Shown: positions 1 to 63,975, numbered from the stretch's first letter. The stretch: 64,000 nt of DNA from an uncultured Gemmatimonadaceae bacterium (GCA_963781585.1 CAWAGQ010000017.1:18469-82468), one strand, 5' to 3'. Notes: generated by a model from the letters alone, not told the origin. Numbers and translations: made by a program.

Positions 1-1907
1 ACCGTTACGGCGATGCGCTGGAGTTCGCCAAGGATTTCTTCTACGCGATCTCGCAGATGGCGATGACGCCATCGGCCGAGACGTATCTGGCGGCGTTGTC
101 GCAACGGACGGTGACGCCGGTGAGCGGCATCGGGAGCGTAGAGACGCCGGCGCGCGGTGTGGGAATGATCGAGGGGACGCCGGTGCACGGCATGACGGGG
201 CTGACCGGAACCGGCACCCAGACTCCGGTTGGATCCACCCCCGCGTTAGGCATTCCGATACCGGCGGCCGCACGCGCCGACACGTCTGCCGCCCGGGCCG
301 CCTCCGAGGAGGTGACGGTTCCGATACCGGTCGCGGCGCTGGCCGGGCGCGCGGGCCAGGGCGCGGCGATCGCGGCCGACGCGCAAACGGCCAGCGAGGC
401 ACCCACGCTCGAAGTGGAGCCCGGCGGGATGACCGGGCCGGACGAAATGGGCGAGCCGGTCCCTCCGCGGCCGCGCGGGCGTCGGAGGCTCACCGTGGGA
501 GTCGCGGTACTCGGGGTGCTGTTGCTGACCACGATCGCGGTATGGGGCCGGAACCGTGGCACGACTCAGGCGGTGATGGGGCCGCCGTTGTCGGTCTTTG
601 ACAGTACGGCGTCTGCCACGGCGACGAGCGCCGCCGACTCGGTGAGGAAGGACACGTCCGCCACCGCCATGCCGAACACGGGGTCGCTCGATGACGCGGT
701 CCGGCAGAGCACGGCGAGCGTCTTCGGCATCGGGACCGACGGGCGCGGTGCCGGATTCCTCGCCGACAGCAGCGGCATCGTGCTCACCTCGGCATCGCTG
801 GTCGAATCACAGGATACGGTTCCGGTACTGGTCGATGGCGCGCACCTGCTGCTGGCGCCGGTGCTGGTGCGGGACAAGACGCGCGACGTTGCGGCGCTGC
901 TGATCTCGATGAAGGCGTGCGGCCCGTGCACTCCCCTCGTCCTGGCTGACGACAGCGCCAACGTCGCCGTGAAGGACTCGGTGGTCGCGATCGGCGCGCC
1001 GAGCATGGTGAGCACCCGGCGGGACGGTCGCGGAACGGTTTCGCGCGTGACCGACAGCAGGCTGACCGCCGCGCTGCGCGCCACCGACGGATCGGCGGGC
1101 GGTCCACTGGTTCTTCCCAACGGCCTGGTGGCCGGACTCACGCGCTCGGCCACCAGGAGCACGGCCACCGGGATTCCGGCCGCGACCATCCGGGCGGTCC
1201 TTGCCCGGGCGCAGGATGCCGGCCGGCGGGTGTCGCCGGTGGAGCGCGAGGTGGCGTCGTGGTCGCCGACGCCGGTGCCTAACGCGCTTCTGGCCGATGG
1301 CCGGAAGCGTTCGCGGAAGACGATCGAGGACGGATTCCTGACCCTCAAGGATGACTTCGCCGTCCTGGTGATGACGCCGCAGGTGATGGCCTGGCGTCAG
1401 GAAACCGCGGACTCGTTGAAGAAGAATTACAATCCGATGTCGTTGTCCAGCGAGTGGAACTGCTACGAGCGCGACAAGGGACGCTGCGACCCGATCGCCG
1501 ACTGGCCGGCGTGGAGTGAATACGTCGCCGAGCGGCGCGGGGTGGTGATCATCCAGGTGGCGCCGAAGGACGCCGCGCCACCGGAATACGGGCACCCGAC
1601 CCAGTTGCTGAACCTGCGCAGGGGGAGCGCCGGATCGTTCGTCATCACGCGCGACCAGACGCTCCTGCATCCGATCGACAGCGCGCGGGTCCACACGGTG
1701 GTGAACTGGGAGGCCTATCCCCGCGACCAGCAGGATGTGTACTCGAGAATATTCGTCTTTCCGTTGAGCGATTTCGCGTCGGGCGGCAAGGTCAACATCA
1801 CGGTGACCGACATGAAGAATGGCGACCGCCGAACCGACATTGAATTGCCGGGGAAGCTGCTGGACGCGGTGAAGGCGGACATCCGCGCGATCGACAGCAA
1901 GCGCTGA
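1..1907 (+). CDS. 5'-truncated membrane protein, probably a Ser/Thr kinase C-terminus plus TM helix plus degenerate trypsin-like (HtrA-type) domain
   Basis: The frame is open from the window edge (RYGDALEFAKDFF resembles a kinase C-terminal RYxsAxEF motif). It continues into a Pro/Thr/Ala linker, a TM segment (LTVGVAVLGVLLLTTIAVW) and trypsin-like motifs GAGFLAD..IVLTSASLV, DVAALLI and GSAGGPLV. Confidence 0.65.
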   Translation, partial: RYGDALEFAKDFFYAISQMAMTPSAETYLAALSQRTVTPVSGIGSVETPARGVGMIEGTPVHGMTGLTGTGTQTPVGSTPALGIPIPAAARADTSAARAASEEVTVPIPVAALAGRAGQGAAIAADAQTASEAPTLEVEPGGMTGPDEMGEPVPPRPRGRRRLTVGVAVLGVLLLTTIAVWGRNRGTTQAVMGPPLSVFDSTASATATSAADSVRKDTSATAMPNTGSLDDAVRQSTASVFGIGTDGRGAGFLADSSGIVLTSASLVESQDTVPVLVDGAHLLLAPVLVRDKTRDVAALLISMKACGPCTPLVLADDSANVAVKDSVVAIGAPSMVSTRRDGRGTVSRVTDSRLTAALRATDGSAGGPLVLPNGLVAGLTRSATRSTATGIPAATIRAVLARAQDAGRRVSPVEREVASWSPTPVPNALLADGRKRSRKTIEDGFLTLKDDFAVLVMTPQVMAWRQETADSLKKNYNPMSLSSEWNCYERDKGRCDPIADWPAWSEYVAERRGVVIIQVAPKDAAPPEYGHPTQLLNLRRGSAGSFVITRDQTLLHPIDSARVHTVVNWEAYPRDQQDVYSRIFVFPLSDFASGGKVNITVTDMKNGDRRTDIELPGKLLDAVKADIRAIDSKR

Positions 1908-2004
1908 GTCAGACGCCGCGTTGCGTTCGCGGTGAGGGCTGGTATCCGGCCTGCCCCTCGGCCTCGTCGGGCGCCCCGGCCCCGTGCCCCCGCTGCTCTG
2001 CCGG

Positions 2005-2307
2005 TCAGGCTTTGCCGCGGATCTTCGCCATCCACCACCGAACGCCCACGAACAGGAAGCGCCAATCGTGGAGGAATTCGGGGGGCTTCCCCTCGAAGGC
2101 GTGCCCGACGAACTGAAACAGCCAGCCGAGCACGAACAGGCTGCCCGCGATCCACCAGAGTCCAGCCACGAAGAATGCGACGATGGCGACGGCCACCGAC
2201 AGCACGATCAGCGGGATCCCGACCGTGTGACAGAATCGGTTGATCGGGTGCTGATGGCTCTGCGCGTATTGCACGATCAGCTCGCTGGACGATCGGCTGC
2301 CGGGCAT
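2005..2307 (-). CDS. DUF962/Mpo1-like membrane protein
   Basis: YAQSHQHPINRFCHTVGIP and FQFVGHAFEGKPPEF motifs; ATG at 2307. Confidence 0.85.
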   Translation of the reverse strand: MPGSRSSSELIVQYAQSHQHPINRFCHTVGIPLIVLSVAVAIVAFFVAGLWWIAGSLFVLGWLFQFVGHAFEGKPPEFLHDWRFLFVGVRWWMAKIRGKA

Positions 2308-2322
2308 GTGGACCTCACAGTC

Positions 2323-2371
2323 TATCAGTTGTCGGTTATCAGCTCTCAGCCACCAGTTGTCAACCGTCAGC
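2323..2371. repeat. Degenerate 7-bp tandem repeat, 7 units
   Basis: tatcagt tgtcggt tatcagc tctcagc caccagt tgtcaac cgtcagc. Confidence 0.7.
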
Positions 2372-3652
2372 CATGAGCTCGTGTCCCGCCACCCGCGCGC
2401 ACTCGGCCAGCACGGCGGCCCCGACGAAGATGCTCTCTTCCGCGGCGACGAAACGCGATGAATGTGCCGGTGTGACCATGCCACCTTCCTCCCGTGCGCC
2501 GATGCGGAGAAAACACCCCGGCATCCGCTCGAGGTACACCGCGAAGTCCTCGCCTCCCATATTGGTCAGGCCGAACGGTACCACCGAACCCGGGCCCAGC
2601 ACGTGCTCGGCGGCCCGGCGCGCCCAGGCGCTCTCGCGCGGGGTGTTCACGACCGGCGGTGTGCCGTCGCCGAACGCGATTTCCGCGGCCAGGCCGTAGG
2701 CGGCGGCGACGGTGGTGGCGAGATGGCCGACGTGCTCGCGCAGTGCCGCGCGCACTTCCGGAACCATCGCCCGCAGCGTTCCACTGAGCGCCACCTGCTG
2801 CGGTATCACGTTAGGCGCCGATCCGCCATGCATCATCCCCACGGTGACGACGGCCGTGACCCCCGGGTCGAGCCGCCGGGCGACGATCGTCTGCAGCGCA
2901 GTGACGATCGCGGCCGCGCCGACGATCGGATCGGCACCCTCGTGCGGGCGGGCTCCGTGCGCGCCGCGCCCGGTGAGCGTGACAGTGAAGGTGTCGGACG
3001 ACGCGGCCACCGCGCCGGGGTCGGCCACCACCTGACCGAGCGGAAACCTCCGGTCCACGTGCCCACCGAAAATCGCGACCGCGCCGTCGAGCGCGCCCGA
3101 GGCGAGGACAGCTCGCGCCCCGGCGCCCACCTCCTCAGCCGGCTGGAGAACGACGATGACATCACCCGCCGCCGGGTCTCGCTTCAACAGCAGCGCGGCA
3201 CCGACCGCCCAGGTGGCGTGAACGTCGTGGCCGCAGGCGTGCATCACCCCCGGACAATCGGACGAGAATGGGAGACCTGTCTCCTCCTGAATGGGGAGCG
3301 CATCGATGTCGCCGCGAATGGCGACGGTGGGTGCGGCACCGGCTCCGGGAAGGCGTGCCACCACGCCGGTGGCCGCCACCCGGCGCACATCGTTCACACC
3401 CGCGTTGCGCAGAAAGGTCTCGAGGCGCCCGGCCGTCCCCTCTTCCTTCCACGAGAGCTCCGGGTGGCGGTGGAGTTCGCGGCGCAGGCCGATCAGCGAC
3501 CCGATCTCGTCTGGCGCGAACTGCGCCTGCGGCCCCTCGCCGCGGCCGCCGCCCGGCCGCCCCGTACTTCGGGCGGGCGCAGTCGCGGCCGCGGGTGGCC
3601 GGGGAGAAGCGCCACCACGCTGGGCGTTGACTGCCGGATCGTCACTCGTCAC
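2360..3652 (-). CDS. M20 family amidohydrolase (possible N-succinylamino acid hydrolase)
   Basis: RRELHRHPELS, RGDIDALP, MHACGHD, QPAEE and GGEDF motifs; the GTG start overlaps the upstream stop (GTGA). Confidence 0.9.
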   Translation of the reverse strand: MTSDDPAVNAQRGGASPRPPAAATAPARSTGRPGGGRGEGPQAQFAPDEIGSLIGLRRELHRHPELSWKEEGTAGRLETFLRNAGVNDVRRVAATGVVARLPGAGAAPTVAIRGDIDALPIQEETGLPFSSDCPGVMHACGHDVHATWAVGAALLLKRDPAAGDVIVVLQPAEEVGAGARAVLASGALDGAVAIFGGHVDRRFPLGQVVADPGAVAASSDTFTVTLTGRGAHGARPHEGADPIVGAAAIVTALQTIVARRLDPGVTAVVTVGMMHGGSAPNVIPQQVALSGTLRAMVPEVRAALREHVGHLATTVAAAYGLAAEIAFGDGTPPVVNTPRESAWARRAAEHVLGPGSVVPFGLTNMGGEDFAVYLERMPGCFLRIGAREEGGMVTPAHSSRFVAAEESIFVGAAVLAECARVAGHELMADG

Positions 3653-4785
3653 GAAAGCCAGGGTTCGCCCACCGTCTCTTCGCGAACGGTGAGGTCCTCG
3701 ATGCGGTCGCGGTCGATGCCCACGCCAAGTCCCGGACGATCGAGGGGAACGTGGATGGTGCCGTGATCGGTCATCGTCCACTCGGGGGTCACGATGTCGC
3801 AGTCCCAGTAGCGTGCGCTGGGGGAGATGTCTCCCGGTTTGACGAAATTGGAGAGCGAGGCGAGGGCGACGTTGTAGGCGCGTCCGATGCCGGTCTCCAG
3901 CATCCCGCCACACCAGACCGGAATGCCGTTCGATTCGCAATAGTCGTGGATGGCGACCGACGCGGTGAAGCCGCCCACCCGTCCCGGCTTGATGTTGATG
4001 ATCCGGCCGCTGCCAAGGCGGACCATGTCCTGGGCGCGGTCGAGCGAGGTGATGGACTCGTCGAGGCAGATGGGCGTCTGGAGACGCGTCTGGAGTTCGG
4101 CATGCCGGGCGAGATCGTCGAAGGCGAGCGGCTGCTCGATCATCATCAGGCCCAGCCGGTCGAGCTCCAGGAGCGGCTCGATGTTGTCGAGGGTGTAGGC
4201 GTTGTTGGCGTCGACCATCAGCGGGGCATCAGGTCCGAGGGCGTCGCGGGCGGCCCCCGCGTACTCGACATCGGCCCCCGGTCTGATCTTGATCTTGACC
4301 TTGCGGTAGCCCTGGTCGAGAGCGCGGCGCGCCGTCTCCACCAGGGCATCGGGGGTGGGCTGGATGCCTAACGAGATTCCGACCTCGACCTCGTCGCGGG
4401 CGCCGCCGATCAGTCGCGCCAGCGGGATGCCGAGGCGTTCGGCTTCGAGCCCCCAGATGCCCATCTCCACGGCCGCCCTCGCCATGTAGTTCCCGCGGCA
4501 GTCCTGCGCCAGAAGGGCATGCACTTCGCCCGGGGCGTCGAGCGATCGGAAGAGGATGCGCGGGGCCACGTGGCGGATGATGGTCACCCACGCGCTGTCG
4601 ATGGTCTCGGCCGAGTAGTTGGGATATTCCCCGGCGACGCACTCGCTCCAGGCGGCGGTGCCGCTGCCGTCGCGCAACTCGAGCAGCGCGATGCGTCGCT
4701 CCGAGACCACGCCCGAGGATATCCGGAATGGCTCCCTGAGGGGCAGCCGGATTTCGCGCAGCGTGATGGCGACGACTTCGATCAT
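3649..4785 (-). CDS. menC: o-succinylbenzoate synthase / N-succinylamino acid racemase (enolase superfamily, NSAR/OSBS subfamily)
   Basis: KVKIKI, VDANNAY, IEQPL, CLDES, NIKPGRVGG, WCGGMLETG and GDIS motifs. Confidence 0.88.
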   Translation of the reverse strand: MIEVVAITLREIRLPLREPFRISSGVVSERRIALLELRDGSGTAAWSECVAGEYPNYSAETIDSAWVTIIRHVAPRILFRSLDAPGEVHALLAQDCRGNYMARAAVEMGIWGLEAERLGIPLARLIGGARDEVEVGISLGIQPTPDALVETARRALDQGYRKVKIKIRPGADVEYAGAARDALGPDAPLMVDANNAYTLDNIEPLLELDRLGLMMIEQPLAFDDLARHAELQTRLQTPICLDESITSLDRAQDMVRLGSGRIINIKPGRVGGFTASVAIHDYCESNGIPVWCGGMLETGIGRAYNVALASLSNFVKPGDISPSARYWDCDIVTPEWTMTDHGTIHVPLDRPGLGVGIDRDRIEDLTVREETVGEPWLS

Positions 4786-5698: not shown

Positions 5699-8674
5699 AT
5701 GAGCGCGGATTTCGAGGCGCTGCGTGACGCCCTGTCGGGTGTGTACGCGATCGACGACGAACTCGGTCGCGGTGGAATGGCAACGGTCTATCGCGCCCGC
5801 GATCTCCGGCACGACCGCCCGGTCGCCCTCAAGGTATTGCATCGCGACACCGGCGTTGGTTCCGAGCGGTTTCTCCGGGAGATCAGGACCGCGGCGGCGC
5901 TCTCGCACCCGAATATCCTGCCGGTCTTCGATTCCGGGTCGGCATCGGGTTTCCTCTACTACACGATGCCGCTGGTGGAGGGCGAATCGCTCCGCGGCCG
6001 CCTCCAGCGCGAGACGCAGCTTCCGCTGGCAGACGCACTGCGGATCGCCCGCGAGGTGGCCGACGCGCTGGGCTACGCGCACGCCCATAACGTCATCCAT
6101 CGCGACATCAAGCCGGAGAACATCCTCCTCCACGACGGGCACGCGAGCGTCGCCGATTTCGGCATTGCCGGGGCGATCGTACCGGCGGAGGACGAGCGGC
6201 TGACCTCCACGGGTATCGTGGTGGGGACACCGAACTACATGAGTCCGGAGCAGGCCAGCGGCGATCGGCGCCTGGACGGACGGACGGATGTCTACTCGCT
6301 CGCGTGTGTCGTGTACGAGATGCTGAGCGGCGAGCCTCCACATAGCGGACCCACTCCGCAGGCAGTCCTGGCGCGACAGCTCAAGGGCGAGGTCCGGTCA
6401 CTGACGCCGCTCCGTTCGAGTGTCAGCGGCGATCTGGACGCAGTGGTGCGGCGCGGTCTGGCGCCGGCGCCGGCGGATCGCTACCGCTCCGCGCCCGAAT
6501 TTGTCGCCGCGCTGGACGCTGCAACGCACGGTGACGCGGTGCCGTCAGCCGGGGCGCGCCTCGGCCGACATCGAGTCGTGCGCCTAACGGTACTGGGAGC
6601 GGCCGTTGCCCTGCTCGCTCTGGCCGGACGGCGCATGCTGCGCGGCGGCGGCCACGGTCGGAGCGCTGCGGTCGCGATCTTTCCATTCCGCACCAGCGGA
6701 GCCGGCGTGGACGAATGGACGGAATACCTTCCCGACCTGCTGGCCACGTCTCTCGACGGCACGCCGGGCCTCCCGGTGGCGGACCCGTGGTCGCTGTGGC
6801 ACGCGCTGCGGCCGGATCGTGCCGAACGCGCCCGCAGTCCCGACCCGGATGAAGCGGCGCAACTGGCGAAGCGCGCCGGGGCCGCGACCTTCCTGCTCGG
6901 CGCCGTTGTCCAGACCGGCGAGCGGGTTGTCGTCACTGCCCGGCTCTACGCCAGCGAGCGGGCCAATCTGGTGCACACGTTCTCCGAGGCGACGGTCACC
7001 GACAGCCTGCCTGCCCTGGTCGAGCGCCTGGCCGTCGGCATCGTCGGGCAGCTCACCGGGGAGCCCGGACCTCACGTCGATGCGCATGCCACGGATTCGC
7101 TCGAGGCACTGAAGGCCTACCTGGCGGCGCGCGAAGCGATGCGGCGCGGCCTGGTCGACTCGGCGGACATCGCGATCGACCGCGCCGTTGCGCTGGACTC
7201 GAATTTCGCGCTCGCCCTGGTGACGGCGGTCAGCATCAAGTCCTGGCGGCAGTCGACTGCCGGGCAGGCCTACACCGGATTGCTTCCGCTGGCCGAGCGC
7301 GCCGTGCAGGCCAGCGATTCGTTAGGCGAGCGCGAGCGCCTGCGGGCCCGTGCCGTCCTGGCTTCCATTCGCACCGACGGTGCTGGCGTGGCCGACGCCA
7401 CGAGGCGCATTCTCGAGCGAGACAGCACCGACATCCAGGCGCTCGACCTGCTCGGCTACAGTCACCTGTCCTACGGGTGGCAATACGGAATGGGGGAACA
7501 GGAGGCCCGGGCGGTGTCGGAACGGGTGCTGCGTGTCGACTCGCTCGACGTTCCGGCGCTGGTGCGCCGGTCCTTTCTTGCTGCGGCCGCCGACGATTCC
7601 GCCGACGTGCAGCACCAGATCCGGCGGCTGGTGAGCGCGGACACCACGAACGCGCTGATCCGCTCCGCCTTGCTGAGCCTCCGCGCCCTGCAGGCCGACT
7701 CGGAGCAGTTCCGCAAGCTCGTCGACGCGGTCAGCACCGGCCCCGTGGCCGAGTGGCTGGCCGTGTTTCGCACCCTGCGTTCGTTCTCGCCCGATCGGGC
7801 GGAACAGCTTGCGACACGACTGGAGACGGTCGCCGGCCCGGGCGTACCGCAGCGCACGGCGCTCGGCGCGAGCATACAGCTGGCGATGGCCGAGGGGCGT
7901 CAGCAGGAAGTCGACTCGATCGCCCGGTCGGGCGCGTACAGACCATTTCCGGGCCTCGCGACACAGGTGAATCTCCTGTTCGTCGCCTCGGCCATCGCCG
8001 GAGTGGGAGACAGCTCAATCACGCAGCGGGGCCTTCGCGAACTGGTGGGGCTGGTTCCGATCGACTCGGCCAGCGCGTACTTCGAGACCAGACCGGTCTG
8101 GTGGGCCGGCTGGTCGATTGCGGCGTATAACGCGATGTTCGGGGATTCCACTGTGACAAGGCGGTGGCGCGCCGTCATCGGGTCCCTTCCAGCGGGCGGC
8201 ACCTCGGATGACTATCGGGGCGCATTGCAAAATGACCTGGACTCACGCCTCGCAGCGAGACGCGGCGACCTCCAGACCGCGCTCAGTCTGAGCGAGCGCG
8301 CGTTCGATCTGTGGACGATTCACGCCAATAACACGCTGGAATCCCAACCCGAGCCGGCGATGCGGTTTCACCTGGCCACGCTCCTCCGGGCAACCGGGCG
8401 AACCGACAGCGCAGCGGCGTTGTTGCGCTCGCTCGTTCCTCCCACGACCTGGATGGGATTCTACACGACGCGCGCGTCGCTCGAGTTGGGAGAGATCGCT
8501 GAGGCTGCGGGCGATCGTGCAGCGGCGGCCCGCTACTATGGAATGGCGGCTTCCCTGTGGCGAAGAGGTGGACCCGAGGTCGCGACATGGCGCGATCGCG
8601 CGGTGCAGGGCCTGCGACGCGCAACCAGTGAACCGTCGAGTCGGGCTCCCAGCACGCAGCCACGGCAGCCCTGA
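5699..8674 (+). CDS. Ser/Thr protein kinase with TM segment, TolB_N-like region and TPR-like C-terminus
   Basis: LGRGGMATV, VALK, HRDIKPEN, DFG, GTPNYMSPEQ and DVYSL motifs; helical C-terminal region. Confidence 0.93.
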   Translation: MSADFEALRDALSGVYAIDDELGRGGMATVYRARDLRHDRPVALKVLHRDTGVGSERFLREIRTAAALSHPNILPVFDSGSASGFLYYTMPLVEGESLRGRLQRETQLPLADALRIAREVADALGYAHAHNVIHRDIKPENILLHDGHASVADFGIAGAIVPAEDERLTSTGIVVGTPNYMSPEQASGDRRLDGRTDVYSLACVVYEMLSGEPPHSGPTPQAVLARQLKGEVRSLTPLRSSVSGDLDAVVRRGLAPAPADRYRSAPEFVAALDAATHGDAVPSAGARLGRHRVVRLTVLGAAVALLALAGRRMLRGGGHGRSAAVAIFPFRTSGAGVDEWTEYLPDLLATSLDGTPGLPVADPWSLWHALRPDRAERARSPDPDEAAQLAKRAGAATFLLGAVVQTGERVVVTARLYASERANLVHTFSEATVTDSLPALVERLAVGIVGQLTGEPGPHVDAHATDSLEALKAYLAAREAMRRGLVDSADIAIDRAVALDSNFALALVTAVSIKSWRQSTAGQAYTGLLPLAERAVQASDSLGERERLRARAVLASIRTDGAGVADATRRILERDSTDIQALDLLGYSHLSYGWQYGMGEQEARAVSERVLRVDSLDVPALVRRSFLAAAADDSADVQHQIRRLVSADTTNALIRSALLSLRALQADSEQFRKLVDAVSTGPVAEWLAVFRTLRSFSPDRAEQLATRLETVAGPGVPQRTALGASIQLAMAEGRQQEVDSIARSGAYRPFPGLATQVNLLFVASAIAGVGDSSITQRGLRELVGLVPIDSASAYFETRPVWWAGWSIAAYNAMFGDSTVTRRWRAVIGSLPAGGTSDDYRGALQNDLDSRLAARRGDLQTALSLSERAFDLWTIHANNTLESQPEPAMRFHLATLLRATGRTDSAAALLRSLVPPTTWMGFYTTRASLELGEIAEAAGDRAAAARYYGMAASLWRRGGPEVATWRDRAVQGLRRATSEPSSRAPSTQPRQP

Positions 8675-11306: not shown

Positions 11307-13883
11307 TCAACGCATGCCCCGGACGTCGAAAATGTGCGACACGTACTCGGCCCGGAGGTAGGCGTACGCACGCGGGTCGTCAGCCATCGTGATGTCGAGA
11401 ATCGTGATCAGCGCCGACCGCGCGGTAGGCAGAATCGACAGTACCTCCGTCCGTTGACCGGTTGCCAGGTCCAGCCGGTCCACGCGCGGAGGATTCTCGT
11501 TCGCGCCCGTGATCCAGAGCCCCCGCCCGTCCGGCGTCCAACGGATGATCACGTCCGCAGAGCTGAGTTTCGGCACCGGCCGGGCTGGCGAACCGCTCAG
11601 GGCGTAGATGCTGTATGCGTCGGCCGAGGCCGTAAGCACCGATGTGCCGTCCGGGGCGATGAAGCCCTGGTTGGTGCCTTCCGGCGTCAGCGCGCGGAGC
11701 GGCCCGTCGCCCAGCGGCCGGACGTAGCAGCGGGTAGCGTGTCCCTGTTCGTTGCCGCAGACGAGCAGCGAATTCCCATCAGGGAAGAACTGCGCATCGG
11801 TATATGATTCGAGTTCGCCGTGATCAAGACGGCGCGGCTGGCCCGGTCCGGTCGGATAGAGCATCAACTGCTGGGGCGTCGTTGGCACGCTGGCGAGGAC
11901 CCAACGCTTGTCCGCCGACAGCGCTCGCACGGCTCCCTCTCCCAGACGCACCGCAGGCGATCCGTCCGTTTTTCGGACCATCACGGCATAGTTGGCGCCG
12001 GCATCGGCTGACTCGTCTCCGAACGCAAGCAATTCGCCGTCCAGCGAGAGATGTGGGCCCTGTGAATTGTCGAGCCAGGACAGATCGCGCTCAGAGCTTG
12101 CGCCGGGGCCCTTCACCATCAGCCGGAAGAACAAGTCGTCTCGCGTGAGCAGCCAGCGACCGGAGGCCGATACATCCTGCACTGTCACCGTGCCCGCGCT
12201 TGGGAGCACGAGGTGGGCCCGCCCGTCGAGTGTCACCGCATGAACCTGATAGAACCCGCCCTCGAGCGCGGCGCCGAAAATGATGCGCTGGCCGTCGGGC
12301 ATCCAGGCCAGGCCTTCCAGGCCCCAGTAGCCCTGGGTGAGCATCCGGTGGGCGCCTTTCAGATCGACCACCGCGACGCCGCCGCGGTCGTCATACCGCA
12401 AGGGGTGTTCGAGAAACGCGATTTGGTCTCCCGACGGTGAGAACCGCAGGTCGGAGAGATACCCGGTCGATTCGTAGATCACCGTTCCGATCGGGTACTC
12501 GAGCCGATCCTTCCCGTTCACGTCGTGGATGATCGCCAGGTCGGATCCGTCGGGCGCCCAGTCCGCTTCGCGAACAGCCGCGAGAATCTCGCGCGGCGCG
12601 CCGCCGCCCATCGGCATGCGGGCCAGCGTTCCAGTGAAGAGGCGGTGCCCCAGGTAGGCAGCGTGCACGAGCACGGCCATCTCGTCGTGAGAGGACACGG
12701 ACAGGAGATGCATTGCCGGTTGGCCGACCGGGCGAGGCTCCGGATAGTCCGGCCGGATGACGAAGAGGCTGGGAACGCTGCCCTGGGCAGCGGCGCTATA
12801 GACGATCGTCTCCCCATCGCGGGAGAACCGGGCCGTGAACACCGCCTCGGTGGTAAATGTCCGCTGCGTGAACGACACCTGATCCAGGGCGGCACCGGCG
12901 CTGGAGCCGCCGACGAGAAATCCGAGCAGGCCGACGCGCACACCGGCTGCCGCGACGGCGACGCCCGATATCAGTCCTCCAATGAGCGCCCACCTCCAGC
13001 CCGACCCGCGGCGCAGGGGGGTCGGCCCCGTCAGTGCGGCGGTGGCGAACGACGGGTTCTTCAACGCCTCGGCGAAATCCCTGGCGCTGTCGAACCGGTC
13101 GGCGGGGAGCTTCTCCAGCGCCTTGGTGATGGCGGCCGTCACGTTCGCCGGCACGGATTTGCGCAGGGTGGTGACCGCGGGCACCGGCTCGGTGAGGATC
13201 TTCATGATGATCTGCTGTGCCGAGCCGCCGCTGTGTGGCGGTTCCCCCGCGAGCATCTCGTAGAGCACGCTCGCAAGTGAATAGATGTCGGAGCGCGCGG
13301 TGATCTCCTTCTCGGCGGTGGCCTGCTCCGGGCTCATGTAGTGGGGCGTGCCTAACGAGAGGCCGGTTTCGGTCATCCGGCCACCGGCCGCCGCGCTGAC
13401 CGCGAGGGCGATTCCAAAATCGGCGACCATCGGCCGCCCGTCGTGCAGGAGGATGTTCTCCGGCTTGATGTCGCGGTGGATCACACCGTGGCGGTGGGCG
13501 TAATCCAGCGCGTCGGCCACCTCGGTGGTGATGCTCACCGCCTGGTCGATGCCGAGTTGCGTTTCGCGGGTGAGCTTGCTCCGCAGTGTCTCGCCTTCGA
13601 TGTACGGCATCACGTAGAACAGGAAGCCGTCGGCGGTGCCGGAATCGAACAGCGGCAGGATGTGCGGGTGCTGCAGCGATGCGGTCGTCTTGATCTCCAC
13701 CACGAACCGCTCGGCGCCCAGCACGGCGGCGAGTTCCGGCTTCAGAACCTTGAGGGCGACCTTGCGGTCGTGCTTGAGGTCATGGGCGAGGTAGACCGTG
13801 GCCATGCCGCCGGTACCCAACTCCCGCTCGATGCGGTATCGGTCCGCGAGGGCGGCGGCGAGGCGTTCTGTCTGGGAGGTCAC
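11307..13883 (-). CDS. Ser/Thr protein kinase with PD40/TolB-like beta-propeller
   Basis: Complete kinase motifs, a TM helix, and repeated FSPSG/WAPDG/WMPDG blades; GTG start. Confidence 0.93.
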   Translation of the reverse strand: MTSQTERLAAALADRYRIERELGTGGMATVYLAHDLKHDRKVALKVLKPELAAVLGAERFVVEIKTTASLQHPHILPLFDSGTADGFLFYVMPYIEGETLRSKLTRETQLGIDQAVSITTEVADALDYAHRHGVIHRDIKPENILLHDGRPMVADFGIALAVSAAAGGRMTETGLSLGTPHYMSPEQATAEKEITARSDIYSLASVLYEMLAGEPPHSGGSAQQIIMKILTEPVPAVTTLRKSVPANVTAAITKALEKLPADRFDSARDFAEALKNPSFATAALTGPTPLRRGSGWRWALIGGLISGVAVAAAGVRVGLLGFLVGGSSAGAALDQVSFTQRTFTTEAVFTARFSRDGETIVYSAAAQGSVPSLFVIRPDYPEPRPVGQPAMHLLSVSSHDEMAVLVHAAYLGHRLFTGTLARMPMGGGAPREILAAVREADWAPDGSDLAIIHDVNGKDRLEYPIGTVIYESTGYLSDLRFSPSGDQIAFLEHPLRYDDRGGVAVVDLKGAHRMLTQGYWGLEGLAWMPDGQRIIFGAALEGGFYQVHAVTLDGRAHLVLPSAGTVTVQDVSASGRWLLTRDDLFFRLMVKGPGASSERDLSWLDNSQGPHLSLDGELLAFGDESADAGANYAVMVRKTDGSPAVRLGEGAVRALSADKRWVLASVPTTPQQLMLYPTGPGQPRRLDHGELESYTDAQFFPDGNSLLVCGNEQGHATRCYVRPLGDGPLRALTPEGTNQGFIAPDGTSVLTASADAYSIYALSGSPARPVPKLSSADVIIRWTPDGRGLWITGANENPPRVDRLDLATGQRTEVLSILPTARSALITILDITMADDPRAYAYLRAEYVSHIFDVRGMR

Positions 13884-14393
13884 GGCCTCGAAGATGTCGT
13901 CTGACGGGCTCGGCCGCGAGTCTGCCGACTCGCTGGCGCCCGGCAGGCGATCGGTTGGTCCGGTCTGCCGTTCGATACCGGGGCTCGCGTGCAAATATGG
14001 GACGGCCGGCCGGTTCGCGGCAGCAGGCGCTCCTGAGCGGAAGACGTCAGCAGTCGTCAGTGTTTCTGCCGATGGAGGCCGGGAGCGCCGAACCTCCGGG
14101 ATCGTTAGGTGACAGGCGCGTGCAGGAGGTGCGACTGAAACGCACCGTGGCGGCCCACGCTACGCGTGCTACCTTGCGACGGGTGCATTCGGCACGCAGG
14201 TATCCGACACCGAGACGGCCGTCGGCGCCGGCACCACGCGGATCAGGCCGCTGTCCGACTCGAGTTCAGACCGCGCCCTCAATGCACTCCGGTCGGCTCT
14301 CCACGGGAGTTCGGTTCTGCGACCGGCCTTTCGCTCATGCGTTACGTGAGGGGCCCGGACATCAACCAGCGAATTACAGGCGAGGAATTCATC

Positions 14394-49911: not shown

Positions 49912-49945
49912 GCCGGGCGAACGGTGCACATCGGCGCGCTCATGC

Positions 49946-56410: not shown

Positions 56411-58537
56411 ATGACGGCGCGGAGCCCACCGCAGATCCTTAGATTCCCGGGCGGAGCGAGACGCCTATCGCAGAGACTTTCGAGCCGGGCCGCGTGTCAC
56501 GGGATCCGGCAATGGAGCAGAGCAGCCGCCGTGGCTATTCCGGATTCGCGGACCGCGTTGCCTTCCGAAGACCGGTTCCGGGTCGCCGAATGGATGCTGG
56601 TGTCGGTGGCCCTCTTTTCGCTCGGTGTGACGCTCCCGGTCGTTCCCCGACATTTCTCCACCGATCCGTCGGTGCTGAGCGTGGCCACAGTCGAGGGATT
56701 CAGCACGCCGGTCGCGTATCGGCTCGCGCTGGCGTGGTGCCTGGCGCTGGCTGCCGCCGCCTGGCTGCTGGTTCGCCGCCGTCAGACGTCGGAGCGACCA
56801 CATGGGATGTCGGCCGGGTCGTCACCGGGCGTGACGACATCGGACCCTCGCCGGCGTCGCGGGCGAGCGGAGTGGGTCGAGATCGCGGTCGTCGCCCTGT
56901 TGACGCTGGTGGCGTTCTGGCCGCCGTTTCTCGCCATCTCGGCGCCGTACGTGGAAGACAACAACTTCCTGGTCGCGCTGCAGCGCATGCACGCGGGCAT
57001 GGTGCCGTACCGCGACTTCGAGTACTTGTACGGCCCGCTGATGCTCGTTCCCGCGTCCTGGTGGATGCATCTGACGAGCTTCGCGGGCCGCCACTATTAC
57101 GAGTGGCTGGCCGCGCTCGAGGTGGTGGTCGCGGTGACGGTCGTCCTGCTGGCGCAGCGCTACATCCGGGACCGGGGCGCGCGCCTGGTCGCCATCGCCA
57201 TCCTGCTGGCGTTGCTCGCCAATCCGCTGCTCGGACTCAACTACAACGGCATCCGCCGGCTGCTTCCCATCGTCGCCCTGCTGCTGCTGAGCCATGGCTT
57301 CGATGACGTGGGGCGTCGCGTGGGAGCGGCCGCGCTGATCGGTCTCTCCATCGCATGGTCGCATGAGCAGGGGCTGGCCGCGCTCGTGGCCGCGGGGGCC
57401 ATCTTCGCCCTTGCGTTGCGCGATCGTCCCGGGTCGGATCGTGGCCGGGTGATCACGCACGGCCTCGTCTTCCTCGTGGTCGCGATCGGCGTGTGGGTGG
57501 TGGGCGCCCTGGCCACCCTTGGGCCCGCGTTCGGGGCGTACCTGGGCGAGATGCGCACGCTGATGGGGCGCTTCTCGGCGGGCGAAGCCGGTTTTGGCTT
57601 TCGATGGACGCTCAACGCCGCGGCGGTGTTCGCCCTGGTTGCGCTGGGCGCGGCGTGTGTGGGACGCGGCCTCGCGACGCGCGCCGAACCCGCGGCCGGC
57701 GACCGGTTCGCGTTAGGCGCCCTGGTGGTGGCGATCGTCTCGCTCAAGAGCGGGCTCACGCGCGCCGACATGTTCCATCTCGACGCGGGGGTGCTCGGAC
57801 TCGCGATGGTGTTCCTGTTCCCGATGCGCGCCCCGCGATTGGGACCCCCGCCGCTCGTGCGCCGGGTGGGGCGGGCGACGGTAGCGGTAGCCGCCGCGAC
57901 CTATGCGTTCGGGATGCTACCCACCGTCAGCCTGGTGGCCACCGGATGGATGGCGGGCGCGCGCGCCACGCTGTCCGGTACTCCCAGGCTGCATCTCGCC
58001 TTCGTGCCGGCCGCGCCCGCCCTGATGCGCGAGCGGGTGGCGCAGGATTCCGCCACCATGGCCGTCGCCAGCTGGCTCGCCGACCCGAGCCGCCGCAACC
58101 GCCCGGTCCTGTTCGCCGGCCGGCTCTGGAGCGTGGGGCTCACGGTGGGTGTGTACAAGCGCGACTTCCTCAACGACAAGTTCATCTACGGCGACGAACG
58201 CGCGGCGCGGGAGCGGAAATTCCTGGAAGCCAACCGCGACGTGCTGGTGGTCATCGAGCGCAGCCTGTACGATCGCATCCGCGCCGCTCGCCCCGACACG
58301 GCGTTCGCGACCTGGGATAACGAACGGTCCAGCACACTGGTGAAACGACTGGGGCAGCGGCTGTCATCGGTGCATTTCGACGACGTGCTCGTCGAGGACC
58401 ACATATTCGACCTGAAATGGCAGCGTGCGCTGGGCGACGACCTGCGCGCGCAATTCGACTCGGTGTGGGGCGTCGATCCGGTGGTCGTGCTGCAGCGCCG
58501 CTCTGTCCCCACCGGTTCGGCTGCTACGGTTCCATGA
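56411..58537 (+). CDS. Large polytopic membrane protein, possible GT-C glycosyltransferase
   Basis: Many TMs; ED...L..G.VPYRDF..LYGP periplasmic-loop motif; start uncertain. Confidence 0.65.
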   Translation: MTARSPPQILRFPGGARRLSQRLSSRAACHGIRQWSRAAAVAIPDSRTALPSEDRFRVAEWMLVSVALFSLGVTLPVVPRHFSTDPSVLSVATVEGFSTPVAYRLALAWCLALAAAAWLLVRRRQTSERPHGMSAGSSPGVTTSDPRRRRGRAEWVEIAVVALLTLVAFWPPFLAISAPYVEDNNFLVALQRMHAGMVPYRDFEYLYGPLMLVPASWWMHLTSFAGRHYYEWLAALEVVVAVTVVLLAQRYIRDRGARLVAIAILLALLANPLLGLNYNGIRRLLPIVALLLLSHGFDDVGRRVGAAALIGLSIAWSHEQGLAALVAAGAIFALALRDRPGSDRGRVITHGLVFLVVAIGVWVVGALATLGPAFGAYLGEMRTLMGRFSAGEAGFGFRWTLNAAAVFALVALGAACVGRGLATRAEPAAGDRFALGALVVAIVSLKSGLTRADMFHLDAGVLGLAMVFLFPMRAPRLGPPPLVRRVGRATVAVAAATYAFGMLPTVSLVATGWMAGARATLSGTPRLHLAFVPAAPALMRERVAQDSATMAVASWLADPSRRNRPVLFAGRLWSVGLTVGVYKRDFLNDKFIYGDERAARERKFLEANRDVLVVIERSLYDRIRAARPDTAFATWDNERSSTLVKRLGQRLSSVHFDDVLVEDHIFDLKWQRALGDDLRAQFDSVWGVDPVVVLQRRSVPTGSAATVP

Positions 58538-60852: not shown

Positions 60853-61218
60853 GAGGCTCGTTGGAGGCCCCGGGGCGGCCGATCCGCGGAACCATAGTAT
60901 TGCGGGTGCAATCATCGGACCGGTGGCGGCATCAGGCAATGCGAATGAACCTGTGCGACCGCGCTCCGGGCAAGGGCTCACGCATGCCTGGCATCTGATG
61001 GTGTCCCAGTGGGTTAGGCTGCCCATCAGCCCGGCGGCGACCGGCCCCGTCCTCCTCAGACGCCGAAATGGCGCGCCCGTTTCGCCCGGAGGGCGCCCGG
61101 GGCCGCAATTCTTGCCAACACCCGGAATGAAGGTCAGACTCGAATTTCCACGGGCCGCGTTTCTCCGCCCGCGAACGATCCTCAGCCGGAAATGACACGA
61201 CTTGCACGGAGTCCTTCA

Positions 61219-62244
61219 ATGCGCCGCATGCTGCTTCTGCTCTCGACCTGCTTTGCCTCGACAGCGTTCGCCCAATCGTCGGCGACCTATCACGTCGCGC
61301 GCACCTTCCCGGTTGGCGGTGACGGCAGCTGGGATTACGTGATTCCCGATGCGCCTAACCAACGTGTGTTCATCGGACGCCAGAATCGCGTGATAGTGGT
61401 GGACGAGAACGATGGCAAGCTCCTGGGCGAGGTCACCGGGATCAACGGCGCGCACGGGGTGGCGATCGCGGCCGGGAGCGGCCACGGATTCGCAACGTCG
61501 GGGAACGACAGCGCGGTGGTGATGTTCGACCTCAGGACCTTCAAGGCGCTCGGCCGCATCCCGGCGGCCGAGGATGCCGACGCCATCATCTTCGATCCCG
61601 TATCGAACCGCGTGTTCACGTTCAACGGTGACGCACACTCGTCTACGGTGATCGATCCTGTCGCTGGCAAGTTGATCACCAACATTCCACTAGGCGGCAA
61701 GCCGGAGTACGGACAACCGGCCGGCGACGGCATGGTGTACGCGAATCTCACCGACACGAGCGAAGTGGTGGAGATCGACGCGAAGAATCTGCGGGTGACG
61801 CGCCGCTGGTCCACGGCGCCCTGCCGCCAGCCGGTGTCGATGGGCATCGATGTGAAGAACCATCGCTTGTTCAGCGGATGCCGGAGTGGCGTGATGGCCA
61901 TCTCCGACTACCAGGCGGGCAAGGTGATCACGACGCTGCCCATCGGCGCCGGCGTCGATGGTGCGGCCTACGATCCGGCGACCGGCGATGCGTTCGCGTC
62001 GAATGCCGACGGCACGCTGACCGTGGTTCACCAGGACTCGCCTGACGCGTATCACGTGGTCGAGACGGTCCAGACGGCGCAGGGATCACGGAACCTGGGG
62101 CTCGATCCGGCCACGCACCGGCTGTACCTGCCTGGCGCGAAGTTCGGCCCAGCTCCGGCTCAGGCCACGGCTGGGAATCCGCGGCGCCGCGCGCCGATGG
62201 TGCCGGGGTCGTTCGTGCTGATGGTGGTGGAGCGGTCGCGCTGA
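61219..62244 (+). CDS. YncE-like secreted beta-propeller protein
   Basis: Signal peptide; GGDGSWDY, GAHGVA and DADAIIFDP repeats. Confidence 0.87.
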   Translation: MRRMLLLLSTCFASTAFAQSSATYHVARTFPVGGDGSWDYVIPDAPNQRVFIGRQNRVIVVDENDGKLLGEVTGINGAHGVAIAAGSGHGFATSGNDSAVVMFDLRTFKALGRIPAAEDADAIIFDPVSNRVFTFNGDAHSSTVIDPVAGKLITNIPLGGKPEYGQPAGDGMVYANLTDTSEVVEIDAKNLRVTRRWSTAPCRQPVSMGIDVKNHRLFSGCRSGVMAISDYQAGKVITTLPIGAGVDGAAYDPATGDAFASNADGTLTVVHQDSPDAYHVVETVQTAQGSRNLGLDPATHRLYLPGAKFGPAPAQATAGNPRRRAPMVPGSFVLMVVERSR

Positions 62245-62439
62245 GCCGGAGGGTGGAATAAGGGGATACCTCTTCTCGGGCCCCCAGCCCTGGTCGTCGT
62301 GTGAACTCTTCGACGGATGTGCTTGCTCGTTGCCTGCGCGGCGGTCAATACTCGCCGGAGCGGAGGCATCACCCATGTCCGCGATCAGCCACGCATCAAC
62401 GGCGCAGGTACTCCACCGTCGCTCCGGGAGCGCATCCCG

Positions 62440-62646
62440 ATGATGGTCATCGCCCGCAGTCCCCTGACCCCTGCGGGGCGGGCGGTGGCTGTGTTCCTCG
62501 GCGTGGTCTGCGTTGCCGCAGGAGGCTTCGGTCTCGGGCTCGGTGTGGCGCGCCACAGCCTGCTGCTCGCGGTGCCCGGTGTCGGCGTACTGGCGATCGG
62601 CGTGCTCTACGCGGGTGCGGCATGGCGCGGGCGTCCCTGGCGCTGA
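62440..62646 (+). CDS. Small two-TM membrane protein
   Basis: Two hydrophobic helices in 68 aa. Confidence 0.5.
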   Translation: MMVIARSPLTPAGRAVAVFLGVVCVAAGGFGLGLGVARHSLLLAVPGVGVLAIGVLYAGAAWRGRPWR

Positions 62647-62745
62647 GGCGGGGCGTGGTGGGGAGACCACGGTGCTCCCGTCTCGACATGAACCCGGGCC
62701 AGGACCGGACTGGCGCGTCCGTCCGTCCGGTGCGAAGCTCACAGG

Positions 62746-63975
62746 ATGCCACACCGGCTCGAGCCCGTGCGCTCGCACCCCGGGCACGTTAGGCAGCTCA
62801 TCACCAAAGCTGGGACCGCCTGCGCGCGCGCCGGATTGATCCTCCTTCTCCTGGCAACCGCCCACCACGCGGATGCCCAGGGACAACCGCGCAACGCGCC
62901 GCCAATGCTTCGCCCCATCGACAGCGTGCGCATCGCCGAGAACGATACCCTGTTGCTGGCGCGCCCCAACCGGATCGTCGTCGGCCCGCAGGGCCACTAC
63001 TTCATCTCCGACGGCGGCGAGGCGCGGGTGCTCGAGATCGCACCGTCGGGCGCCATCGTGCGAACCTTCGGGCGCCGCGGACACGGCCCAGGCGAATTCG
63101 AGGTGCCGGGGTTTCTCGCCCTCGGCGGCGACTCGTTGCTGGCGGTCATGGAAGCGGGCCAGCGACGCGTGATCGAATTCGACCTGCGCACCGGGACATA
63201 CAAGGGGAGCTACTCGCTGATCGGCTGGAGCCCCAGCTTTCGCGTGCGCGGACCCAGGATGCTCGCCGGGGTGCTCGAGCCGGACTCGGGGACAGCGCTG
63301 GTCGTGCTGTCGGCGACCGGCGATCGCGTGGGCGCCGAGGGCGTCATCCCCGCGATCGTGCGGACGCATCCCATGCTGCTGGGGGGCTTCGGCGCCGTCA
63401 CGTTCACCGAGACGGACCAGGACGTGTATGCGGTCTTCGAGGTGTCGCAGTCGCTGTACCACTGGAAGCGCGGTGCACGAGACGGCGAAGAGATCCCGAT
63501 CCCCGCGGTACGACGAAAGGGCGTGCGCCAATCGATCTTCGAAGAGCTGCTGCGCGACCCATCCAGGGCGCCGTCACTGGCCTTCGACCGATCGCTTCCG
63601 GTGCTGCTCTCCGTGATGGCGCCGCACGTGCTCGTCCTGGGCACGATGGACGGCGAGTTCGACGGGAAGACCTTCGTCGGCACCTATTCGGTGACGGTGA
63701 TCGATCTCGAGCACCGGCGGGTGTGTCCCGATCTGGAAGTGCCGGCGCCGCGCGATCCGCTCCCGCGCATCGCCGTCCAGGGCGACACGGTCGCGGTGGT
63801 GCAGCAGGGAGTAGATTCATCGGGCCAGCAGGTTGCAGCCATCCGGCGGTTCCGGATCCGCACCGACGGGTGCGACTGGAAGCCGCTTCCGCCGGCGCAG
63901 CCCGTCAGGGCGGACTTCACCACCGTTGCCGGAGACGAGAGAACGCTTTCGGCCTGGGTTCGGGCTACCCGGTAG
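62746..63975 (+). CDS. Secreted 6-bladed beta-propeller protein
   Basis: Hydrophobic signal region; FGRRGHGPGEF motif; start uncertain. Confidence 0.72.
   Translation: MPHRLEPVRSHPGHVRQLITKAGTACARAGLILLLLATAHHADAQGQPRNAPPMLRPIDSVRIAENDTLLLARPNRIVVGPQGHYFISDGGEARVLEIAPSGAIVRTFGRRGHGPGEFEVPGFLALGGDSLLAVMEAGQRRVIEFDLRTGTYKGSYSLIGWSPSFRVRGPRMLAGVLEPDSGTALVVLSATGDRVGAEGVIPAIVRTHPMLLGGFGAVTFTETDQDVYAVFEVSQSLYHWKRGARDGEEIPIPAVRRKGVRQSIFEELLRDPSRAPSLAFDRSLPVLLSVMAPHVLVLGTMDGEFDGKTFVGTYSVTVIDLEHRRVCPDLEVPAPRDPLPRIAVQGDTVAVVQQGVDSSGQQVAAIRRFRIRTDGCDWKPLPPAQPVRADFTTVAGDERTLSAWVRATR

Follow-up and report, generated by a model that had tools for sequence, protein, structure and literature searches.

An octamer is written repeatedly into a stretch of Gemmatimonadaceae DNA

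Does a short word that recurs through bacterial coding sequence belong to the proteins or to the DNA itself? The question is raised by a stretch of 64,000 nt (hereafter the window) from an uncultured Gemmatimonadaceae bacterium (GCA_963781585.1 CAWAGQ010000017.1:18469-82468), in which a sequence-only reading had noticed an over-represented, non-palindromic octamer, CGTTAGGC, with its reverse complement, GCCTAACG. An exact count recovered all 20 copies where that reading had placed them, ten on each strand, and the five one-mismatch copies that it had reported around a GTTAGG core all proved real. As described below, the word is far in excess of chance, is imposed on the DNA and not on the peptide, and may be a tag by which these bacteria recognize their own DNA.

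The GC content of the window is 66-70%. Dinucleotide shuffles (n = 100) predicted 0.76 copies (standard deviation 0.91, maximum 4) compared with the 20 observed, and Markov models of order 0, 1, 2 and 3 predicted 2.39, 0.89, 0.40 and 0.58. Models of order 4 to 6 predicted 8.8-20.2 copies because the sub-words occur almost solely inside the motif: the window holds 29 TTAG, 25 GTTAGG and 20 full octamers. GTTAGG alone is found 5.69 times in shuffles. Synonymous-codon shuffles that preserved the proteins yielded 0.78 copies when performed within genes and 0.45 when performed window-wide, with a maximum of 4, and none of 500 reached 20. The reported excess was thus confirmed, and a codon-preserving null falls far short of it. 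CGTTAGGC ranked first by over-representation among all 8-mers of the window (z = 25.5, order-3 Markov). The TTA share, which the earlier reading had proposed as a check, is similarly skewed: 11 of the 14 TTA codons in the called genes lie within the word. The density is 0.31 copies per kb, which, extrapolated to an assumed genome of 5-6 Mb, would correspond to roughly 1,500-2,000 copies genome-wide. Alignment of the 20 copies revealed no similarity in their flanks.

Genes in the window were called with a simple self-trained codon model and then checked by Pfam, which corrected three first calls: an M20 peptidase at 2360-3553(-), an ABC ATPase and ABC-2 permease at 41754-43453(+), and a GT2 glycosyltransferase at 53413-54225(-). 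The copies and the genes in which they lie are as follows.

244..251, plus strand: exact copy; sense GCG-TTA-GGC (A-L-G) in the trypsin-like peptidase gene 6-1907(+), named by Pfam
1277..1284, minus strand: exact copy; antisense to gene 6-1907(+), G-CCT-AAC-G (P-N)
2809..2816, plus strand: exact copy; antisense to the M20 peptidase gene 2360-3553(-), class CCT-AAC
4366..4373, minus strand: exact copy; sense TCG-TTA-GGC (S-L-G) in the enolase-superfamily gene 3649-4785(-), named by Pfam
6582..6589, minus strand: exact copy; antisense to the Ser/Thr kinase gene 5696-8674(+), CGC-CTA-ACG (R-L-T), named by Pfam
7320..7327, plus strand: exact copy; sense TCG-TTA-GGC in the Ser/Thr kinase gene 5696-8674(+)
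13350..13357, minus strand: exact copy; sense TCG-TTA-GGC in the Ser/Thr kinase gene 11307-13901(-)
18939..18946, plus strand: exact copy; sense TCG-TTA-GGC in the HerA-like ATPase gene 17768-19345(+)
19831..19838, plus strand: exact copy; antisense, class CCT-AAC, to the unnamed gene 19559-20137(-)
24841..24848, minus strand: exact copy; antisense CTG-CCT-AAC-GAT (L-P-N-D) to the unnamed gene 24527-25894(+)
33516..33523, minus strand: exact copy; sense GCG-TTA-GGC in the MacB/FtsX permease gene 33333-35735(-), named by Pfam
34614..34621, minus strand: exact copy; sense ACG-TTA-GGC in the MacB/FtsX permease gene 33333-35735(-)
36849..36856, minus strand: exact copy; sense CCG-TTA-GGC near the 3' end of gene 36831-37913(-), overlapping the start of the M15 peptidase gene 36235-36849(-)
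40196..40203, plus strand: exact copy; sense GCG-TTA-GGC in the MacB/FtsX permease gene 39289-41724(+)
41027..41034, plus strand: exact copy; sense GCG-TTA-GGC in the MacB/FtsX permease gene 39289-41724(+)
41870..41877, minus strand: exact copy; antisense GGG-CCT-AAC-GGG, the G-P-N-G of the Walker A motif (GPNGAGKT) in the ABC ATPase gene 41754-42695(+)
49944..49951, minus strand: exact copy; its TAG at 49946-49948(-) is the stop codon of the sulfatase gene 49946-51802(-)
51229..51236, plus strand: exact copy; antisense GCG-CCT-AAC-GTG (A-P-N-V) to the sulfatase gene 49946-51802(-)
57711..57718, plus strand: exact copy; sense GCG-TTA-GGC in the unnamed gene 56570-58537(+)
62787..62794, plus strand: exact copy; sense CAC-GTT-AGG-CAG (H-V-R-Q) in the unnamed gene 62758-63975(+)
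14103..14110, plus strand: one-mismatch copy CGTTAGGT (position 8)
17874..17881, plus strand: one-mismatch copy CGTTAGGT (position 8)
37395..37402, minus strand: one-mismatch copy TGTTAGGC (position 1)
61012..61019, plus strand: one-mismatch copy GGTTAGGC (position 1)
61353..61360, minus strand: one-mismatch copy GGTTAGGC (position 1)

Eleven exact copies are read as sense xCG-TTA-GGC, six as antisense CCT-AAC, and one each as antisense CTA-ACG, sense GTT-AGG and a TAG stop. The frames assigned earlier, including the stop and the Walker A copy at 41870, were correct, and the corrected gene calls add 2809 and 19831 to the antisense CCT-AAC class. Since CGT-TAG and GCC-TAA would place stops in frame, every frame able to carry the word carries it. 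From the window's own peptides and codon usage, we expected 0.11 xCG-TTA-GGC copies, 0.19 CCT-AAC, 0.03 CTA-ACG and 0.07 GTT-AGG, and observed 11, 6, 1 and 1, respectively. The word fills 6 of the 9 compatible x-P-N-[VADEG] slots (CCT-AAC) compared with 11 of 66 [SPTA]-L-G slots and 1 of 34 and 1 of 39 slots in the other two rare-codon frames. Frame use in the window therefore follows codon cost, with occupancy highest where the required codons are least unusual.

The word is shared by a subset of Gemmatimonadaceae

We used the HerA-like ATPase of the window (17759-19342) to retrieve 80 loci from contigs representing one genome per species. Nearly all are titled as Gemmatimonadaceae, Gemmatimonadota or Longimicrobiales metagenome-assembled genomes (MAGs) from many separate projects, and the best match is 80% identical. 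The gene calls are our own throughout, with the Pfam check covering those of the window. Thirty loci contain at least one copy of CGTTAGGC and 50 contain none; 27 reach at least one copy per 10 kb, the arbitrary threshold by which we define a bearer. Densities among the copy-holding loci range 40-fold, from 0.5 to 18.6 per 10 kb, with the word itself unchanged. The densest are L033 (19 copies in 10.2 kb), L018 (16 in 9.8 kb), L016 (23 in 16.4 kb), L022 (20 in 15.2 kb) and L050 (21 in 21.5 kb). In an unbiased 8-mer ranking, CGTTAGGC came first in 14 of the 65 loci of at least 9 kb and among the top four in 4 more. Four loci of equal GC content (L062, L065, L072 and L073; 70-72%) have no copy. 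Pooling all sources of at least 5 kb, we counted 222 copies in 464 kb from 26 bearers, including the window, and 3 copies in 733 kb from 44 non-bearers; the loci are syntenic around one gene, so these pooled counts include orthologous sites from several genomes. Non-bearers match the expectation from codon usage (2 observed, 4.65 expected).

In a rapid maximum-likelihood phylogeny of the HerA-like protein (81 rows, single gene, support by Shimodaira-Hasegawa-like approximate likelihood ratio test [SH-aLRT] only), the bearers fall into four groups: a 21-row clade that includes the window, a hyper-dense clade of 5 rows, L061 paired with L066, and L039. The 9-row sister clade of L061/L066 has no copy, and motif-free sister clades have equal GC content. 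A pooled 8-mer search for "dialect" words in seven motif-free clades returned no comparable word. Single-locus candidates were rejected: CTGCGGAC (L048), GGACTGAA (L081) and AGTCCCGA (L083) are local tandem arrays and not dispersed words. Gemmatirosa has arrays of two units, GGACTGAAGAA (11 bases) and AGTCCCG (7 bases), and each unit forms a pair of arrays in inverted orientation (L081 36216-36301 and 42262-42964; L083 8710-8779, 25137 and 38155). The array of L048 (15656-15782) has the 11-base unit CTGCGGACTGA. These local arrays are unrelated to the dispersed word.

A cultured bearer was identified by a tblastn search of PLSDB with a permease from the window, which matched two megaplasmids of Gemmatirosa kalamazoonensis KBS708. 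Three 50-kb pieces of these megaplasmids (GC 73.5-74.2%) contain 29, 39 and 31 copies, 99 in 150 kb, with 52 on one strand and 47 on the other. TTAG lies within the GTTAGG core in 36 of 40, 48 of 52 and 35 of 38 occurrences per piece, and 59 of 80 TTA codons fall inside the word. The word occupies 26% of [SPTA]LG and 43% of xPN[VADEG] slots. The plus-strand share of copies per piece (0.62, 0.54 and 0.42) compares with a coding-strand share of 0.72, 0.59 and 0.20, and by our own arithmetic tracks the coding strand about as the ratio of sense to antisense classes predicts. Three motif-free stretches of 4.7-8.4 kb, two of which are about 3 points lower in GC, lack mobile genes; they contain a parAB pair and otherwise ordinary genes. 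The longest, L083 41644-50000 (8.4 kb; GC 70.6% compared with 73.6% for the piece), includes parA/parB of plasmid 2. Together, the 27 bearers among 80 loci from independent MAG studies and this PacBio-finished strain rule out an assembly artefact or single-genome oddity; CGTTAGGC is a shared, clade-restricted property of a subset of Gemmatimonadaceae.

[quoted passage not shown] The published SMRT methylome of KBS708 lists three N6-methyladenine (m6A) motifs, RGATCY, ATGCAC and CCAGN7TCA, and does not mention CGTTAGGC (PMC3974934). Because it is missing from these methylated motifs, the word is unlikely to be a target of m6A or N4-methylcytosine (m4C) modification in KBS708 (PMC3974934). The earlier suggestion that it might be the site of a DNA-modifying enzyme is weakened accordingly for m6A and m4C, with 5mC lying outside that evidence.

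The signal is carried by the DNA and bends the proteome

The pooled copies define a word of exactly 8 bases followed by a ninth position with a weak bias against C (present in 21 of 222 copies). Among the 24 intergenic copies this base is a purine in 21, and since its bias is present in every frame class, it belongs to the word. Over 15 bases on each side of the 222 copies, flanking positions carry at most 0.12 bit except for +9 (0.26 bit). With no information in the flanks beyond the core, a mobile or dispersed repeat (repetitive extragenic palindrome, miniature inverted-repeat transposable element or insertion-sequence end) is ruled out.

By class, the 222 copies comprise 96 xCG-TTA-GGC (class S1), 48 antisense CCT-AAC, 22 antisense CTA-ACG, 21 GTT-AGG, 11 TAG stops and 24 intergenic copies. 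All classes exceed the codon-usage expectation, by 11- to 105-fold. With every locus oriented on the HerA-like gene, 117 copies are on the plus and 105 on the minus strand. In the five densest loci, the word occupies fractions of 0.49, 0.44 and 0.53 of the compatible peptides in three classes and 0.25 in the fourth; it is there close to saturating what the proteins allow and has no orientation preference once opportunity is counted. The proposal that selection or fixation acts on the DNA rather than the peptide is borne out: the word is found in all frames, in both orientations, at stop codons and between genes, and far exceeds the synonymous-shuffle null. The codon-usage expectation, the synonymous shuffle and the antisense, stop-codon and intergenic copies together rule out an explanation at the level of codons or peptides.

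One-mismatch copies are enriched at selected positions. Comparing bearers (464 kb) with non-bearers (733 kb), we found 15 and 1 copies of TGTTAGGC and 12 and 3 of GGTTAGGC, both changed at position 1; 45 and 4 of CGTTAGGT, changed at position 8; and 74 and 40 of the T4>C variant, CGTCAGGC. Positions 2, 3, 5, 6 and 7 are strict, and enrichment is limited to positions 1 and 8 and to T4>C. Such a pattern is expected of a recognition word in mutation-drive balance. CGTCAGGC occurs at 14 sites in the window (4799-62047) compared with 6.19 +/- 2.46 in shuffles, and 17 times in L061/L066, where 1.7 are expected, alongside the main word. The recognized word may be CGTYAGGC, or CGTCAGGC may be the main decay product of CGTTAGGC.

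In the densest loci, the proteome is bent towards the peptides that the word encodes. The frequency of x-P-N-[VADEG] per 1000 codons falls from 1.87 in the densest loci to 0.68 in the remaining bearers and 0.42-0.55 in non-bearers. On the same scale, PN dipeptides reach 3.27 in the densest loci compared with 1.15-1.19 in non-bearers, with little shift in the window (1.26), and [SCRG]LT reaches 2.01 compared with 1.07-1.21.

Sites are conserved and evenly spaced

For the window, site conservation could be followed at one of the 20 sites, that in the HerA-like gene, which alone aligns with the fetched loci. Motif copies recur at seven columns of the HerA-like alignment. At column 409, which corresponds to the window site at 18939, TTA encodes the leucine in 17 of 28 bearers compared with 2 of 53 non-bearers, the latter otherwise having CTC or CTG. 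Nine of the 17 bearers have the full word and 8 differ in an outer letter only, the last in 7 and the first in a TCT-TTA-GGT copy. At column 124, alanine, serine or threonine is replaced by proline in some bearers, creating CCT-AAC. Across 11 phylogenetically separate sister pairs compared in both directions, 46 of 90 motif observations in aligned DNA were conserved exactly compared with 16.05 for phase-matched control 8-mers, so that retention at orthologous positions is about 3 times that of the controls. An all-pairs count, in which the comparisons are non-independent, gave 25% conserved compared with 10% for controls at 70-75% identity. Synonymous-site conservation in relatives, whose absence would have spoken against a genuine signal, is thus present.

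The pooled copies, all on pieces of 64 kb or less, are spaced more evenly than random. Gaps normalized to locus density have a coefficient of variation (CV) of 0.775 compared with 0.928 +/- 0.06 at random, a value as low being reached in 0.2% of 2000 simulations, and only 3.1% of gaps are shorter than one-tenth of the mean, where 9.6% are expected. The CV in the KBS708 pieces is 0.70-0.77. For the window alone it is 0.79, a value not significantly low (22.5% of 5000 simulations). The even spacing of the pooled copies fits the idea that one tag per fragment is enough.

The cumulative GC skew of the window rises almost monotonically, which suggests that the window lies within one replichore; the copies nonetheless divide equally between the strands. 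The argument made earlier from this equal split, that the word is not a polar signal, is reinforced by the near-equal strand counts in the pooled loci and KBS708.

Several intergenic copies lie in predicted hairpins. In L050, the two copies of an inverted pair (12421/12439) base-pair as the stem of a strong hairpin (-35.8 kcal/mol, z = -7.4); in three further cases the copy lies at the tip of a GC-rich hairpin, as its apical GUUA loop (L019 1143, L019 11624 and L013 3757; z = -4.3 to -5.8). None of these copies is in the window. In four loci (L001 2336, L031 11585, L034 11525 and L035 2638) the HerA-like gene terminates at the TAG of a motif copy, and at least 7 more (L005, L006, L018, L019, L022, L033 and L050) have a copy no more than 70 bases downstream of that gene.

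The word resembles uptake sequences and HIP1

In Neisseria, the minor pilin ComP is the receptor of the DNA uptake sequence (DUS), and the uptake signal sequence (USS) of Pasteurellaceae has a 9-base core plus phased flanks. Like DUS and USS, CGTTAGGC is a short non-palindromic word with many copies in both orientations, mostly within genes and in several tolerated frames. As with DUS and USS, its encoded peptides are enriched, it is clade-specific and conserved between species, its one-mismatch copies are abundant and it may occasionally serve in terminator hairpins. Its density is also of their order, with 0.3 copies per kb in the window and a maximum of 1.9 among the loci. The accessible text of PMC2817400 gives 1,471, 765 and 1,892 DUS/USS copies per genome, and describes a rough doubling of the tripeptides that uptake sequences encode and a frame use that likewise follows codon cost. 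For DUS, the accessible portion of PMC2397512 describes high conservation, spacing that agrees with conversion-fragment size and occasional use as terminators. Unlike DUS/USS, CGTTAGGC has an unrelated sequence, belongs to another phylum, rarely forms inverted terminator pairs and showed no depletion in the unshared genes sampled; it has 8-9 informative positions compared with the 10-12 given for DUS in that same portion (PMC2397512). As far as its available text goes, a 2025 preprint treats uptake sequences as a trait of Neisseriaceae and Pasteurellaceae (10.1101/2025.10.24.684340).

The HIP1 octamers of cyanobacteria (from "highly iterated palindrome 1"; GCGATCGC) are described, in the accessible part of PMC5861425, as mostly genic, conserved beyond controls, with conserved single-mismatch forms and non-random spacing, variable among lineages and of unsettled function. 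Accessible portions of more recent work link HIP1 to transformation efficiency and horizontal transfer (10.1101/2024.09.10.611283; PMC13756078). CGTTAGGC resembles HIP1 in being an octamer, in an excess within the 15- to 300-fold range and in conservation above control octamers, and also in its mostly genic location, its single-mismatch forms, the non-random spacing of its pooled copies and its variation among lineages. HIP1 and its variants are palindromic and recognized by methyltransferases; CGTTAGGC is not palindromic and is not among the motifs detected by SMRT (m6A/m4C) in KBS708. On its present features, CGTTAGGC would appear to work like DUS/USS and has the statistics of HIP1, and it cannot be filed with either.

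An uptake-type self tag is the favored reading

We tentatively favor the reading, to which we assign a probability of about 0.4, that CGTTAGGC is a "self" tag of the DNA-uptake type, spread by molecular drive. The word would be written into the chromosome and megaplasmids by a process that reads duplex DNA irrespective of its orientation. Competent cells would preferentially bind or import fragments that carry it, and each homologous replacement would then favor word-carrying alleles. The word would thus build up at any position that the encoded protein permits, up to the point at which drive is offset by mutation and by the cost in codons or amino acids. We favor this reading because the excess, both orientations, codon-tolerant frames, enriched peptides, conservation and spacing, and clade restriction match DUS, and because type IV pilus genes are reported to be widespread in the phylum; in the accessible text of PMC10581226 they are reported in Gemmatimonadota of all sampled environments except marine. 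From this match we infer DNA uptake as the reading process and competence of these bacteria. The suggestion of the sequence-only reading that the word is a genome-wide, non-polar signal akin to an uptake sequence or to HIP1 in its behavior is supported, and it withstood the comparisons with codon-preserving shuffles, with other assemblies and with synonymous sites in relatives. A bolder version, about which we are slightly more doubtful, is that CGTTAGGC is the first uptake-type self-recognition sequence outside Proteobacteria, with a new receptor and an independent origin, and that a large branch of Gemmatimonadota is naturally competent and prefers its own DNA.

Several observations weigh against an uptake tag. 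DUS often form paired terminators and are absent from recently acquired genes. Here, paired terminators are few, with one clear inverted pair among 24 intergenic sites, and the observed/expected ratio in 77 locally unshared (orphan) genes, a weak proxy for foreign DNA, is 0.85, close to the 0.98 and 0.93 in shared genes. The locus L002, which is nearest to the window in its HerA-like protein (80% identical, and sister to it in the tree at 95% SH-aLRT), has 1 copy in 21.6 kb, where about 6.7 are predicted from the window density, and 2 TTAG in total at a GC content of 70%; either rapid loss of the word in that lineage or a misleading single-gene tree would account for this. We found no report of competence, transformation or uptake bias in Gemmatimonadota in the open-access literature, and the word "competence" is absent from a 2023 survey of the phylum. 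Pfam identified no receptor or competence gene in the window, and the 20-64 kb pieces contained no pilin or competence gene. In the densest clade, half of the slots are occupied, and some of the apparent conservation there may stem from the same few permissive slots having been filled independently. Finally, selection for a chromosomal function could explain equally well the near-saturation of slots and the positions shared by genomes of only 70-75% identity.

Such a function is the most serious alternative, although we consider it unlikely: a plentiful chromosomal protein with, for example, a nucleoid-associated, segregation, condensin-loading or repair-guiding role would bind CGTTAGGC, and selection would maintain a regular, not necessarily polar, tagging. 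This would accommodate the even spacing with few close neighbors, the positional conservation above control 8-mers, the equal density in shared and unshared genes and the high density on both KBS708 megaplasmids, and a length of 8-9 bp, with inner positions 2-7 strict, is compatible with a single protein-DNA interface. We know of no described nucleoid or segregation site at 0.3-1.9 copies per kb, which counts against this explanation. HIP1, a comparable word, is argued in the accessible part of PMC5861425 to be selected and periodically spaced. Selection would nevertheless need the strength to change amino acids, and a density range of 0.5-18.6 per 10 kb and the near absence from L002 are ill-suited to an essential architectural role. 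Less probable again, in our judgment, is a word driven by repair or modification of the HIP1 or Vsr/Dcm type, in which an enzyme (for example, a C5-cytosine methyltransferase with a very-short-patch-type partner) converts near-cognates and the word accumulates as a by-product. The neighbors of a Vsr-type target are depleted, as for E. coli CCWGG, whereas here the transition neighbors TGTTAGGC, CGTTAGGT and CGTCAGGC are enriched in bearers. Most sites, moreover, need at least 2 synonymous changes from the usual codons (for example, CTC/CTG to TTA), not easily supplied by a single-mismatch repair bias, and the word is not palindromic. Cytosines are present on both of its strands, and their methylation to 5mC would have gone unreported by SMRT. 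The m6A and m4C forms of modification are missing from the word in the KBS708 methylome (PMC3974934). The excess is of the same order as the 15- to 300-fold of HIP1 (PMC5861425, accessible part), and HIP1 is tied to orphan methyltransferases in the available text of PMC4390886.

The two remaining explanations fare worse. Chi, KOPS (FtsK-orienting polar sequences) and other architecture-imparting sequences (AIMS) are non-palindromic, over-represented octamers like CGTTAGGC, with much smaller enrichment, and E. coli Chi occurs about once per 3-5 kb, a density near that observed here. A polar guide of this kind would be read one way by a translocase or by RecBCD/AddAB, and Chi and KOPS are strand-biased with replication (PMC5861425, accessible part). 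CGTTAGGC has no such bias: its copies divide 10/10 within an apparent single replichore and 117/105 in the pooled loci, and the bias in KBS708 follows the coding strand. This defining property is lacking, and the polar-guide reading is therefore contradicted; we consider it very improbable. We give almost no credence to a translational or codon-context effect, whereby TTA would be tolerated only between NCG and GGC, or to chance or an assembly artefact. The concentration of TTA codons in the word, 11 of 14 in the window and 59 of 80 in the KBS708 sample, is what a codon-context effect would produce, but 9 of 20 window copies and 126 of 222 pooled copies lie outside the TTA frame, as antisense, GTT-AGG, stop-codon or intergenic copies. 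An artefact would not recur in dozens of independent assemblies and one finished genome.

Very few lineages are known to carry words like this one (the DUS of Neisseriaceae, the USS of Pasteurellaceae and the cyanobacterial HIP1), and whether such words arise by selfish drive or by selection is still argued. No earlier description of CGTTAGGC was found in open-access main texts, with supplements and subscription journals outside the search. The word adds an independent instance, from a soil phylum that is distant, abundant and little explored, and its density ranges 40-fold among relatives that share it. Close relatives that lack it are natural experiments for locating the responsible gene by phylogenetic profiling, and a cultured bearer with a finished genome makes uptake, binding and modification directly testable. 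If the bolder version of the uptake-tag reading is true, drive would fill about half of the synonymous opportunities in some lineages, recruit TTA, the rarest codon, almost wholly and shift amino-acid sequences. CGTTAGGC accounts for the odd TTA and TAG usage of its bearers, can help to bin Gemmatimonadaceae contigs and to recognize foreign DNA within them, and may be a key to the genetic transformation of these bacteria.

Other features of the window

The window contains three large duplicated MacB_PCD/FtsX permeases at 8759-11230(-), 33333-35735(-) and 39289-41724(+), a PadR regulator at 27091-27411(-) and two Ser/Thr kinases of about 900 residues at 5696-8674 and 11307-13901. This content of permease, PadR and Ser/Thr kinase genes is typical of Gemmatimonadota and Acidobacteriota. 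No tRNA genes or Rfam families were found in the window. Its longest motif-free stretch, 24849-33515 (8.7 kb), contains a cluster of phosphoketolase (XFP), HAD hydrolase and acetate kinase genes at 28977-33209. The gene at 25965-26432(+), 6.6 kb downstream of the HerA-like ATPase gene, encodes a domain annotated as [quoted passage not shown] (PF10107, E = 9e-41).

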